Source: a virus
Taxonomy: Duplodnaviria; Heunggongvirae; Uroviricota; Caudoviricetes
Length of the DNA: 26,300 nt
Virus record (IMG/VR): IMGVR_UViG_2693429677_000024
Direction: 5' to 3' (one strand)
Part shown: positions 1-3,039 of the stretch, piece by piece
Numbering within the stretch: the stretch's first letter is position 1
How the letters are laid out: every line of letters begins with the position of its first letter
Notes under the pieces: generated by a model
Database searches by the model: none
What the model saw: the letters and a program-made list of their open reading frames with translations, nothing else
What the model was told of the DNA's origin: nothing
Position numbers and translations under genes: made by a program

Positions 1-189
1 GTGTTCACCGCCGGCAGTGCCACGGTTACTCCGAAACTGAATGGAGTGGCTGGCCCGGCATTCCAGGTTATAAAAGACAGTCTGACACTGGGACTGAATG
101 CGCTGACGCTGACGGATGTTACAAAAAATGCAGCGTATGGCGTTGAGATAGAAAGTCTGATGCTGGAGATAAATGCACCGGCAGCATAA
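1..189 (+). CDS. C-terminal 62 codons of an unidentified protein whose 5' end lies outside the window
   Basis: Open frame runs from base 1 to TAA at 187-189; the track's initial M is GTG at the window edge, so this is probably not the true start. Acidic, Cys-free tail that does not resemble a Q antiterminator. Position (just upstream of the lysis genes) fits the cargo genes often found between Q and S in lambdoid prophages, but I cannot identify it. Confidence 0.35.
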   Translation: MFTAGSATVTPKLNGVAGPAFQVIKDSLTLGLNALTLTDVTKNAAYGVEIESLMLEINAPAA

Positions 190-197
190 TAAAAAAA

Positions 198-230
198 GCC
201 AGCGACTGACCTGAAAAAGAAGACGCTGGC
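198..230. other. Stem-loop, copy 1 of a tandemly duplicated module (GCCAGCG ... CGCTGGC, preceded by a 7-A run)
   Basis: Inverted repeat GCCAGCG (198-204) / CGCTGGC (224-230) with a 19-nt loop; A7 at 191-197. Read on the - strand this is a hairpin followed by a U-run, i.e. terminator-like. Confidence 0.4.
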
Positions 231-346
231 TAAAAGGCCTTATATGTTTGTAGAGACTTATTTTTCACAGACAGCAATGATGCCTGTCAATATATTATCA
301 ATATGCGGATTGTTTCAGTTACAGATGCCTTATTAAGGAAAAAAAC

Positions 347-381
347 AGCCAGCACTGACTTTCGGTGGAGAGGTGCTGGCT
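347..381. other. Stem-loop, copy 2 of the duplicated module (AGCCAGCAC ... GTGCTGGCT, preceded by an A-run)
   Basis: 9-bp inverted repeat 347-355 / 373-381, A7 at 339-345. The flanking sequence (TTTTCnGACAGACAG ... GATG ... TGTCAA ... ATATT) is repeated after both hairpins, about 155 bp apart. Confidence 0.4.
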
Positions 382-556
382 CAAAAGGATAGATGTACTT
401 CACATGTTGCTTCTATATGGCAGTACATTTTCTGACAGACAGTGACGGATGTTGTCAAGATATTGTGTCATTTATAACCTGAATCAGGGGAGGCCGGAAT
501 GTTATCTGGCATTTTTAGCAGAGCCTGAATGCCATAATCACGGCTCCCGGCGTTGG

Positions 557-586
557 CCGTCAGTGGGTGACACTGGCGGCTTTTTT
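557..586 (+). terminator. Intrinsic terminator about 50 bp upstream of the holin start (tR'-like position in a late-operon leader)
   Basis: 9-bp stem CCGTCAGTG / CACTGGCGG (one G-U pair), 5-nt loop, followed by TTTTTTGTTTTT. Confidence 0.55.
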
Positions 587-636
587 GTTTTTCTTTACTT
601 TCATTTTCTGTCGGCGGTGACGGAGACATACATCAG

Positions 637-843
637 ATGGAAAAAATCACAACAGGTGTGTCATACACCACGTCAGCGGTGGGGACGGGATACTGGCTAC
701 TGCAGTTGCTGGACAAAGTCTCCCCATCCCAGTGGGTGGCAATAGGCGTATTGGGTAGCCTGGTGTTTGGCTTGCTGACGTATCTGACAAACCTTTATTT
801 CAAGATTAAAGAAGATAAGCGTAAGGCTGCGAGAGGTGAATAA
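637..843 (+). CDS. S: Class II holin (pinholin), phage 21 S21-type, 68 aa
   Basis: Protein [68 protein letters not shown] is near-identical in length and motif content to the phage 21 pinholin as I recall it (two TMDs, C-terminal KIxEDxRKAARGE). GGAG at 622-625; stop TAA overlaps the R start (TAATG). Confidence 0.85.
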
Positions 844-1340
844 TGTCGCCATCATTACGCAAGGCTGTTGCTGCTGCTATTGGTGGTGGGGCTGTTGCCA
901 TAGCGTCTGTGCTCATCACTGGTCCAGGTGGTAACGATGGTCTGGAAGGTGTCAGCTACATACCATACGAAGATATCGTTGGCGTATGGACTGTATGTCA
1001 CGGACACACCGGAAAAGACATCATTCCCGGTAAAACGTATACCGAAGCAGAATGCAAAGCCCTCCTGAATAAAGACCTTGCCATGGTCGCCAGACAAATT
1101 AACCCGTACATCAAAGTCGATATACCGGAAACAACGCGCGGCGCTCTTTACTCGTTCGTTTACAACGTGGGCGCTGGTAATTTCAGAACATCGACGCTTC
1201 TTCGCAAAATAAACCAGGGCGATATTAAAGGTGCATGTGATCAGTTACGGCGCTGGACATACGCTGGCGGTAAGCAATGGAAAGGCCTGATGACTCGTCG
1301 TGAGATTGAGCGTGAAGTCTGTTTGTGGGGGCAGCAATGA
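843..1340 (+). CDS. R: SAR (signal-anchor-release) endolysin, T4-lysozyme-like muramidase, R21-type
   Basis: N-terminal Gly/Ala-rich weakly hydrophobic SAR segment ([26 protein letters not shown]) followed by a lysozyme catalytic region ([23 protein letters not shown]). Matches the phage 21 R endolysin as I recall it. Stop TGA overlaps the Rz ATG (ATGA). Confidence 0.9.
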
Positions 1341-1774
1341 GCAGGGTAACCGCAATCATCTCCGCTCTGGTTATCTGCATCATCGTCTGTCTGTCATGGG
1401 CTGTTAATCATTACCGTGATAACGCCATCGCTTACAAAGAACAGCGCGATAAAGCCACATCCATCATCGCTGATATGCAGAAGCGTCAACGTGATGTAGC
1501 AGAACTCGACGCCAGATATACAAAGGAGCTTGCTGATGCTAACGCGACTATCGAAAGTCTCCGTGCTGATGTTTCTGCTGGTCGTAAGCGCCTGCAAGTC
1601 GCCGCCACCTGTGCAAAGTCAACGACCGGAGCCAGCGGCATGGGCGATGGAGAAAGCCCAGGACTTACAGCAGATGCTGAACTCAATTATTACCGTCTCC
1701 GAAGTGGAATCGACAGGATAACCGCGCAGGTTAACTACCTGCAGGAATACATCAGGACGCAATGCCTGAAATAA
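1337..1774 (+). CDS. Rz: Inner-membrane spanin component (i-spanin) Rz
   Basis: N-terminus [31 protein letters not shown] matches lambda Rz, followed by a coiled-coil-like periplasmic domain. Start placed at ATG 1337 (the track's upstream GTG is less likely). Confidence 0.85.
1536..1721 (+). CDS. Rz1: Outer-membrane lipoprotein spanin component (o-spanin) Rz1, embedded in the +1 frame of Rz
   Basis: AAGGAG at 1523-1528, 7 nt before ATG 1536. Signal peptide with lipobox VSAC, then a proline-rich mature part ([13 protein letters not shown]). Lies entirely inside Rz in another frame, the classic arrangement. Confidence 0.75.
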
Positions 1775-1806
1775 TTTTTTTGCAAATCACAAAGTCAATT
1801 TAATGA

Positions 1807-1831
1807 GCCTCGCGATGCGGGGCTTTTTTTT
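1807..1831 (+). terminator. Intrinsic terminator downstream of Rz
   Basis: Stem GCCTCGC / GCGGGGC (one G-U pair), 3-nt loop, then T8. Confidence 0.55.
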
Positions 1832-1976
1832 ACATCTGAATTTCACAGCGTATCGCAGCGCGTAACAATCCCGAGTCTTTCAGAAAGCTGAGCCTGAGAA
1901 CTGCCGTATAGGTGAGGACCTCTCGGGGACGGCTTTTCTGTGCGAACAGGCTCAACTTTCTAAAGGAAATACCGAC

Positions 1977-2417
1977 ATGAACAAATCATTAACCGTTCTT
2001 CCTTCTGGCGAATACCCGACCATGAGCAGTCTTGAGATGGTGGATTACATTAATGCTGATCGGAAATCCAAAGCGGAGGCGGAGGGGCTTTCGTTCCCCT
2101 GTAAGAAATATCGCAAACTCGAACACCGCAGTTTCATGAAGAAAGTACCCAAGGTCCTCGGGGATGCAGCTGCAAAATTTTTTGCAACTGATACCTATAT
2201 CAACGGAACAGGTGGTGTTGTGGAGAGGGATATTTGCAATTTTCCCAAGCGTGAAGCTTGCCTCATGGCAATGAGCTACAGCTATGAGCTTCAGGCGCAG
2301 GTGTATGACCACATGACTGAGCTTGAGGGTGGGAAGGAGATTAACCTTCTCGATTTCTCTGGCCTGACCGATATGGCAATCAGCGAAATGCAAAACCGTG
2401 TCGCGGCTGCTGAGTAG
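1977..2417 (+). CDS. Rha-family phage regulatory protein (N-terminal domain ORF, 146 aa) ending at an in-frame amber codon
   Basis: AAGGA at 1963-1967 precedes ATG 1977. The pattern SSLEMVDYIN ... KLEHRSFMKKV ... FATDTYINGTGG ... ACLMAMSYSYELQAQVYDHMTELE fits the conserved Rha-family layout as I remember it. Family assignment is from recall, not a search. Confidence 0.5.
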   Translation: MNKSLTVLPSGEYPTMSSLEMVDYINADRKSKAEAEGLSFPCKKYRKLEHRSFMKKVPKVLGDAAAKFFATDTYINGTGGVVERDICNFPKREACLMAMSYSYELQAQVYDHMTELEGGKEINLLDFSGLTDMAISEMQNRVAAAE

Positions 2418-2456
2418 TTCTCATTTGAAATGCACGGTCAAGCAGGTAGCGCTCTC

Positions 2457-2573
2457 ATGACTCGTCGGAAGAAAGAGAAGAAGGCCATTAAAAAGGCTGA
2501 GCAGCTTGTGAAGGATCTTATTCAGTTCAAGCTATGTGACATGGGGGACTTCCCTGATGGTAAACCAGCATGA
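2457..2573 (+). CDS. Small basic ORF (38 aa; 47 aa if started at ATG 2430), in the same frame as the Rha ORF
   Basis: MTRRKKEKKAIKKAEQLVKDLIQFKLCDMGDFPDGKPA. Its stop overlaps the next ORF's start (ATGA). Separated from the Rha ORF by a single TAG and 13 sense codons. Below the track's size cut-off. Confidence 0.25.
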   Translation: MTRRKKEKKAIKKAEQLVKDLIQFKLCDMGDFPDGKPA

Positions 2574-2773
2574 CTCCGATTGATTTCATACATAAAAATG
2601 TAACAACCGAGTTAATAAAGCTTGGATACGACCAAAACGCGGCTATGACTGGCGCTGACATGGCGGTGGAACATTACCGCCGTTGTTCACAAGCCAGCAG
2701 AAAAGGCCGAATTTTCGATGACTGCCTGTACATTGCAAAACAGTGGGCAGGTAAACAGAAAGGGAAAAAATGA
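2570..2773 (+). CDS. Hypothetical small phage protein, 67 aa
   Basis: ATG-initiated ORF coupled to the upstream small ORF by an ATGA overlap. No motif I recognise. Confidence 0.4.
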   Translation: MTPIDFIHKNVTTELIKLGYDQNAAMTGADMAVEHYRRCSQASRKGRIFDDCLYIAKQWAGKQKGKK

Positions 2774-3039
2774 CAGTCTGAGAGCCACTTTCACAACGGC
2801 TCTCCATTACAAAGCCCATCTACTGGTGGGCTTGATAATGGCTTATACCCTACACGGGATAACTTAACTGATATCCCTTTTAACGGATAAAGGTATTCAG
2901 GCCTGACACATCATGCGCTGTATCGTCGCTGTATTTCCGCATTAACCATGACCGTAGCCCGACGGGGAACTCCTCTGCGCGAGCATGCAGGATGTTGATT
3001 CATTGCTGTGCGACCGTGGTCGCACGACGCTGGTCTGTA

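Follow-up and report, generated by a model that had tools for sequence, protein, structure and literature searches.

The sRNA gene pasA and a probable diverged tandem copy lie opposite the late genes in the esterase-holin spacer of a lambdoid prophage

Here, we present an analysis of the 447-bp spacer that separates a NanS-p/SASA esterase gene from an S21-type holin gene (positions 190 to 636) in a 26,300-nt stretch of tailed-phage DNA (Caudoviricetes; IMG/VR record IMGVR_UViG_2693429677_000024), hereafter the window. This spacer belongs to a lambdoid prophage of the 434/Stx1-phage type. Our analysis makes it likely that two tandem, related sRNA genes, pasA (module 2) and a diverged neighbor (module 1), lie here opposite the late genes, together with an ordinary intrinsic terminator on the plus strand. 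More specifically, (i) the locus of the second of two hairpins is the published sRNA gene pasA, for which the identity, strand, both 3' ends, and Hfq association come from published experiments on identical DNA; and (ii) the chances are roughly even that module 1 is transcribed independently, from a presumed promoter of its own, to give the ~68-nt Hfq-bound RNA seen as EcOnc52. The main identity of the pasA locus and of the plus strand terminator is already published or annotated, and with the locus largely described, our analysis is a modest refinement for sRNA specialists; its sole addition is to recognize module 1 as a tandem relative of pasA and to place EcOnc51 and EcOnc52 on the two modules, neither of which appears to have been reported. 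Among the accessory-genome sRNAs of EPEC, PasA is one of the most connected, its partners including transcripts for type III secretion and the bundle-forming pilus; recognizing the hairpins as sRNA 3' ends prevents misannotation of the region as a late-gene leader. The features are collected in Table 1.

Table 1. Features of the esterase-holin spacer and its borders, in window positions
Feature	Position	Strand	Basis
SASA-family/NanS-p sialate O-acetylesterase gene, 3' end	1-189	+	Stop codon 187-189; end of a long ORF; RefSeq and phage 434 annotation of identical DNA
Module 1 RNA, predicted ~68-nt sRNA of the PasA/PasC family, also the 3' part of the 236-nt PasA isoform	188-255	-	3' end published (743264); 5' end at ~255 predicted from TTGACA (290 to 285)
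Minor PasA isoform, 236 nt, read-through of terminator 2 to terminator 1	188-423	-	Published ends 743499 to 743264, mapped through sequence identity
Hairpin 1, module 1 intrinsic terminator	197-231	-	In the RNA, CCUUUU (232-237) before and U7 (191-197) after
Module 1 promoter-like block (putative)	262-296	-	AATATA-TTGACA (290 to 285), 17-nt spacer, TGAAAA (267 to 262); in register with the pasA promoter
pasA, 85-nt Hfq-dependent sRNA, major form	339-423	-	Published ends 743499 and 743415; probe match; identical DNA
Hairpin 2, PasA intrinsic terminator	347-381	-	5' arm carries the published seed GCCAGCACCU
pasA promoter region	430-470	-	TTGACA (458 to 453) at -35 to -30, 17-nt spacer, weak -10 TCAGAA (435 to 430); geometry from mapped 5' ends
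Predicted stem-loop in the plus strand leader	488-548	+	Fold of 480-600: -45.7 kcal/mol, z -2.9
Strong intrinsic terminator inside the late operon, before the holin gene	555-593	+	Annotated in phage 434; nearly invariant across alleles
RBS (GGAG, 623-626) and class II (S21-type) holin gene (637-843, 68 codons)	622-843	+	ATG at 637

Window positions 1 to 696 are 100% identical, with zero differences, to prophage PP2 of EPEC E2348/69 (NC_011601.1, 743077-743772), and a window position equals the E2348/69 record coordinate minus 743076. The spacer itself is 100% identical to that of phage 434 and 99.3% identical to those of many Stx1a phages, and beyond these phages it is found in ~12% of complete E. 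coli genomes. Bases 1 to 900 of the window have matches over most of their length in 672 complete E. coli genomes and match phage 434 at 98.4%. Downstream of the holin gene lie an endolysin gene (annotated as lysozyme RrrD) and a spanin gene. The phage 434 record already marks two minus strand terminators and one plus strand terminator at these positions. A search for relatives among late leaders of the phage 21 and 82 types returned only 29 phage records that match the spacer, all of the 434, Stx1, H-19B, or 2B8 type, and no informative distant relatives. The intergenic ORFs (468-629 minus, 449-745 plus, and 287-403 minus) have no Pfam match, and Rfam, with the AgvB and AsxR models included, gave no match with an E value of 1 or lower in 1 to 3000 and none at the gathering score across the whole window; the Pas sRNAs are absent from Rfam.

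The identity of pasA rests on two correspondences. The PasA Northern probe, GCCAGCACTGACTTTCGGTGGAGAG, and the minus strand ends of PasA, 743499 to 743415 for the major form and to 743264 for the minor form, are listed in Table S6 of Pearl Mizrahi et al. 2021 (PMC8550237). The probe matches positions 349 to 373 exactly. Because of this match and the gap-free identity to E2348/69, PasA can be placed on the minus strand with its 5' end at 423 and its 3' end at 339, and with hairpin 2 as its terminator. The 3' end of the major form is the final U of the U7 tract of hairpin 2, while that of the minor form, at 188, lies just beyond the U-tract of hairpin 1; thus, the suggestion of the earlier note that the hairpins terminate leftward transcription is borne out by published RNA ends at 339 and 188. 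As published, pasA sits between the sialate esterase gene and the holin/lysozyme operon on the opposite strand (directionality '> < >'). Its RNA, whose published seed is the 5' arm of hairpin 2, is reduced in the hfq mutant (log2FC -2.8), is supported by Northern blotting, and has 41 RIL-seq partners, all for an identical sequence (PMC8550237). Across the PasA, PasA-2, and PasC variants, the terminator stem has 9 pairs, with 100% of cells paired and compensatory changes at 3 of the 9. The RIL-seq target motif of PasA, CUGAUGCUGGA, occurs in the 3' end of the esterase gene (157-167); pairing of PasA or module 1 RNA with this 3' end, calculated with RNAduplex, was no better than with shuffled targets and is uninformative. 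When the sequence is read by eye, no ATG is seen on the minus strand between the hairpins, from which the earlier note had concluded that a small minus strand gene is unlikely. That conclusion fails because the genes are noncoding: the minus strand encodes PasA and a paralogous module.

Refolding and rescanning recovered both hairpins, a diverged tandem repeat of ~150 to 168 bp, and a strong plus strand terminator where the earlier note had placed them. In hairpin 1, 197-204 pairs with 224-231, and in hairpin 2, 347-355 pairs with 373-381. A terminator scan lists hairpin 1 on the minus strand and not hairpin 2, whose loop is above the limit of the scan. Each hairpin is followed on the minus strand by U7 (GCUGGCUUUUUUUAUU and GCUGGCUGUUUUUUU) and on the plus strand by AAAAGG. 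Both modules read CCUUUU(G)-AGCCAGC...GCUGGCU-(G)U7 and have the elements of an Hfq-binding 3' module (a U-rich tract, a terminator hairpin, and at least six U residues), in the definition of Ishikawa et al. 2012 as cited in PMC4104026. The pattern of an A-run, AGCCAGC, GCTGGCT, and AAAAGG described in the earlier note is this canonical Hfq-binding 3' module, seen from the wrong strand.

As plus strand RNA, the two hairpins are stable too (hairpin 1, -15.5 kcal/mol, z -4.7; hairpin 2, -20.8 kcal/mol, z -4.5; 0 of 200 shuffles as good in either case), and hairpin 1 begins 8 nt past the esterase stop codon. Both observations would suit an explanation in which the hairpins serve the esterase mRNA as 3' stabilizing stem-loops or processing sites and the minus strand RNAs are secondary. 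We consider this explanation improbable: the plus strand has AAAAGG in place of a U-tract, whereas the minus strand has its U7 preceded by CCUUUU; abundant published minus strand Hfq-bound RNAs end exactly at the hairpins; and 933W-type esterase genes are without either module.

The two modules are related along their length. The repeated blocks are spaced 150 nt apart at the hairpins (repeat families D6 and D9) and 168 nt apart at the TTGACA and CTGTCTGT blocks. Local alignment of module 1 with module 2 is patchy and consists of collinear blocks only (z = 5.3 against shuffles), which are, in order, AATATnTTGACA, a 10-nt gap, CTGTCTGT, CCUUUU, AGCCAGC with GUCAGUnGCUGGCU, and the U-tract. A covariance model built from homologs of module 2 only (rows for PasA, PasA-2, PasC, and a fourth type) matched module 1 over its full length (189-300, minus strand, model positions 1-132) with 36.3 bits and an E value of 3e-7, a score to which the PasC rows, with a terminator resembling hairpin 1, contribute; in the 26.3 kb, this is the sole significant nonself match. 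The duplication claimed in the earlier note is thereby confirmed. With nhmmer and without the PasC rows, module 1 had an E value of 0.015 and the promoter part alone one of 0.24, which is not significant in this whole-window search. Judging from these sequence comparisons, we conclude that the whole pasA gene unit (promoter block, body, CCUUUU, and terminator) was duplicated long ago. Repeats D1 and D3 and an nhmmer match at 103-120 prompted a search for a third, degenerate module in the 3' end of the esterase gene; at the E2348/69 locus, the covariance model found nothing there.

Whether module 1 is also a gene is more finely balanced. In the Pas papers (PMC8550237; 10.64898/2026.05.13.724894), module 1 is unnamed and is treated as the tail of the minor PasA isoform. 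Accordingly, module 1 could be not a gene but a fail-safe terminator or 3' extension of pasA, a decayed relic of the duplication whose RNA is PasA read-through or a processed fragment, and we give this alternative somewhat less than an even chance. The authors who mapped the locus report the 236-nt minor isoform with the same 5' end as the major form, the -10 of module 1 is weak, its promoter block alone does not reach significance, and a copy on a plasmid has a stem mismatch, suggesting decay. Against this stand the collinearity of the unit with pasA from promoter to terminator, with the exact -35 hexamer and spacing, the EcOnc52 peak on a copy cut off from pasA, and a module 1 to PasA fragment ratio that shifts between conditions. 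EcOnc51 and EcOnc52 were listed by Tree et al. 2014 (PMC4104026) as unvalidated Hfq-CRAC peaks of EHEC Sakai and were later lumped as 'PasA homologues', whereas here they are the two modules of one tandem locus. EcOnc52 (prophage Sp4, 1181998-1182075) covers hairpin 1 and the module 1 body; EcOnc51 (prophage Sp12), in a PasA-2 allele, maps to hairpin 2 and covers only the 3' part of PasA. The two peak areas are similar. In Sp4 (L085, from position 831), IS629 is inserted ~20 nt upstream of the module 1 TTGACA, cutting off everything beyond window position ~311, so that module 1 is still attached to the esterase gene while pasA and the holin leader are gone from there. The edges of CRAC clusters do not mark the ends of transcripts, and because Sakai has several copies of module 1, the reads could be read-through at other copies.

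In E2348/69, module 1 is single copy, and the RIL-seq chimeras there end at 191-218, have the module as RNA2 in 100% of cases, and involve 5 partners, including escD. The ratio of module 1 to PasA fragments shifts 20-fold between growth conditions in this single-copy strain, from 119/4983 to 54/116 (0.024 to 0.47), which speaks against a mere tail or relic. Altogether, the register of TTGACA, the EcOnc52 peak on the copy isolated by IS629, the RNA2-only chimeras, and the shifting fragment ratio suggest that module 1 is a gene in its own right. A plasmid copy that is 91% identical has no substitutions in 256-298; recent spread, instead of selection, may account for the near-invariance of module 1.

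A diverged tandem neighbor of the EcOnc52 type revises a published statement. Zhu et al. 2026 (10.64898/2026.05.13.724894) report that pasA copies are never in tandem, the closest pair being 22 kb apart. The neighbor was missed in that survey because module 1 is too diverged to be found when the 85-nt RNA is used as a BLAST query. A full-text literature search for EcOnc51 or EcOnc52 found no paper.

The putative promoters of the two modules follow one layout. PasC is encoded in a different prophage, yet its mapped 5' end and that of PasA fall on the homologous base, and both have a perfect TTGACA at -35 to -30, then a 17-nt spacer and the weak -10 TCAGAA. We collected 80 related loci from IMG/VR, which reduce to 41 distinct spacers, 40 of them with modules. 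Among these 40 alleles, variation is concentrated in the transcribed body (355-429), and 430-475 is nearly invariant, the pattern that would be expected, on sequence grounds, of a conserved promoter ahead of a variable sRNA body. In a consensus promoter scan, neither the pasA nor the module 1 promoter passes, and the -10 hexamers TCAGAA and TGAAAA are poor. According to Zhu, Shabalina and Storz 2026 (10.64898/2026.05.13.724894), a longer transcript may be cleaved to give the mature 5' end of PasA, in which case the TTGACA block might not be a promoter. No LexA box (CTGT-N8-ACAG) is found for the sRNA promoters in 1 to 700, and a sigma-E-type promoter was rejected by inspection only. The promoters of PasD1 (L091), PasD2 (in E2348/69; L002, 611-667, upstream of the sRNA), PasA/PasC, and module 1 have TTGAC(A/T)-N10-CTGT(C/T)T(G/A)T in common (435-458 and 267-290 in the window), at a nearly equal distance from the mapped or predicted 5' ends and with poor -10 hexamers in all. 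This block may be a shared promoter type or the site of a regulator of prophage sRNAs. In the 26.3 kb, the pattern TTGACW-N10-CTGTYTRT occurs only at the two modules, from which it was derived.

On the plus strand, the strong intrinsic terminator that the earlier note had placed just before the holin gene is supported by the fold, the scan, and the phage 434 annotation. It has an 11-bp stem (555-565/571-581), in which 7 pairs are GC, and then U6GU5 (-21.6 kcal/mol, z -3.5), and its U-tract ends ~44 nt ahead of the holin ATG at 637. The earlier note had taken it, as a tR'-like terminator at 557-586, together with a local promoter at 452-480 (TTGTCA...TAACCT), for a Q-controlled lysis switch, with the hairpins blocking stray leftward transcription. 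A strong terminator ~44 to 50 nt before the holin gene fits this proposal, and unrelated holin leaders, such as those of K-12 DLP12 and the 161-nt 933W-type spacer, carry plus strand terminators too; in a blastn comparison, the plus strand leader has no homology to the essD leader of K-12 DLP12. Several observations nonetheless make the proposal quite unlikely. Q, which was sought upstream of the window in related genomes, is located ~3.7 to 3.8 kb upstream of the holin gene both in phage 434, where an annotated terminator directly follows it, and in the closest complete genome, where ~3.2 kb separate the end of the Q gene from window position 1. The proposed promoter, TTGTCA-N17-TAACCT, fails the consensus scan, and a better reading of its first hexamer is that it belongs to the leftward pasA promoter, as the perfect -35 element TTGACA. 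The plus strand RIL-seq fragments begin ahead of the proposed start site and contain no U-tract longer than 4, and no RNA ending at the terminator was captured. Lastly, what is transcribed leftward is not stray RNA but abundant, specific sRNAs. Because Q and its terminator are far upstream, the 555-593 element is a distal terminator within the late operon and not a tR' that follows pR'.

Between Q and the holin gene lie moron genes, the sRNA PasD, and the esterase gene. In the closest genome, the stretch from Q to the esterase gene comprises a frameshifted gene, a DUF3927 gene, and a plus strand terminator at the site to which PasD2 maps in E2348/69. This terminator (L090, 5227-5245) consists of GGCTGCGCATTGCGCAGC and then U8 and stands just ahead of the esterase start. 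Together with the sRNAs, it implies that the esterase gene is flanked by sRNA genes on both sides and that late transcription crosses at least two intrinsic terminators before the holin gene. In RNA-seq of uninduced EPEC, baseMean was 102 for the esterase gene, 3.5 for the holin gene, and 3.2 for the endolysin gene; these values are not length normalized; calculated per nucleotide, expression falls by only ~3- to 8-fold, and the counts are very low. The drop in expression from esterase to holin fits a block between them.

Based on these observations, we propose the following model. Transcription of pasA would start at ~423 from the TTGACA promoter; it stops at hairpin 2 and its U7 to yield the 85-nt Hfq-dependent sRNA, while a minority of transcripts pass hairpin 2 and end at 188, after hairpin 1, as the 236-nt form. 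Module 1 (188-300), a diverged copy of the pasA unit, would give its own ~68-nt Hfq-bound RNA from the presumed promoter and would also serve as a back-up terminator, so that leftward transcription does not enter the esterase gene. On the other strand, the 555-581 hairpin and its U-tract would, in the lysogen, insulate the lysis genes against transcription of the esterase and moron genes, and we infer that it is read through in late transcription by Q-modified polymerase that has started at pR', ~3.8 kb upstream. A bolder scheme, in which the spacer is a lysis gate, can be drawn from the same elements: both sRNA genes, fully antisense to the read-through RNA from esterase to holin, and the terminator, through convergent transcription, antisense pairing, and pairing of PasB with the plus strand leader at 418-436, would tune how much late and moron transcription reaches the holin gene, with module 1 as an independent, differently regulated paralog. 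We consider this scheme unlikely.

The plus strand spacer offers several separate observations. The leader stem-loop, a long predicted structure immediately ahead of the plus strand terminator, contains a weak terminator-like hairpin at 493-510, followed by AUUUUUAG. A short G-rich tract at 486-493 (GGGGAGG here; GGGGTTGG or GGGGGGGGAG in other alleles) is the sole indel hot spot between the pasA promoter and the plus strand leader. In published RIL-seq data, plus strand spacer RNA pairs at 418-436 with PasB, an unrelated sRNA encoded by a prophage (19 fragments, activating condition). In the nonactivating condition, plus strand spacer RNA is in 798 chimeric fragments, nearly always as the first RNA.

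Tandem pairs of paralogous sRNAs have precedents in OmrA/OmrB of E. coli and PrrF1/PrrF2 of Pseudomonas, where the PrrH read-through RNA spans PrrF1/PrrF2. As in these systems, pasA and module 1 are head-to-tail units with their own terminators, conserved 3' ends, diverged 5' bodies, and a read-through RNA across both. Both terminators are used according to the published 3' ends. The units are far more diverged than OmrA/OmrB, phage borne, and antisense to an operon, and the downstream promoter is predicted. AgvB and AsxR (RF02702 and RF02703), at the lambdoid moron site, are similarly short Hfq-bound sRNAs that are encoded downstream of pR' on the strand opposite the late operon and vary in their 5' parts while their 3' ends are conserved; however, they sit upstream of the esterase gene rather than downstream, and their sequences differ, with no Rfam match here. 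By analogy, the plus strand terminator may be likened to the lambda pR'-6S RNA-tR' arrangement, in which an intrinsic terminator on the late strand before the lysis genes must be passed by Q-modified polymerase. It differs from lambda tR' in lying ~3.8 kb from Q/pR' and in being one of several plus strand terminators of the moron region, of which that of PasD is another; no promoter or Q-binding element was identified in association with the 555-593 terminator.

Within EPEC E2348/69, PasA corresponds to module 2, with identical DNA, the same orientation with respect to the esterase and holin genes, and the same terminator, while PasC represents the single-module form of the same spacer (292 nt compared with 447 nt here). 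More generally, the spacers fall into three length classes, 444 to 448 nt with two modules (29 distinct), 290 to 301 nt with one module (11 distinct), and 161 nt of the 933W type with none, and a tandem module 1 explains these two-, one-, and zero-module classes. In the PasC spacer, a hairpin-1-like terminator is joined to a module-2-like body. Judging by the repeats, a deletion between the GCTGGCTnAAA blocks 150 nt apart would yield exactly this arrangement, which we infer to be the direction of change.

Rearranged forms of the locus occur elsewhere. The last ~90 nt of the esterase gene with module 1 alone are found, at ~91% identity, on plasmid pRM10386-2 (L004, 2900-3160) and ~100 other E. 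coli plasmids of 82 to 97 kb. The pRM10386-2 fragment adjoins IS600 and the uilS lactonase gene and has its substitutions in the flanks and the stem, with none in 256-298. In phage 2B8 (L087, 2510-3469), a mobile-element gene takes the place of the segment from the middle of the esterase gene to window position ~375, and module 1 and the PasA terminator are gone. In strain N96 (L088), only window positions 503-635 of the locus remain before the holin gene. Lastly, positions 64-79 and 466-481 of the window form a 16-nt inverted repeat with 15 of 16 positions complementary, which pairs the esterase coding region with the segment from -43 to -58 relative to the PasA 5' end; such a 16-nt inverted pair occurred anywhere in 5 of 2000 dinucleotide shuffles of window positions 1 to 700.
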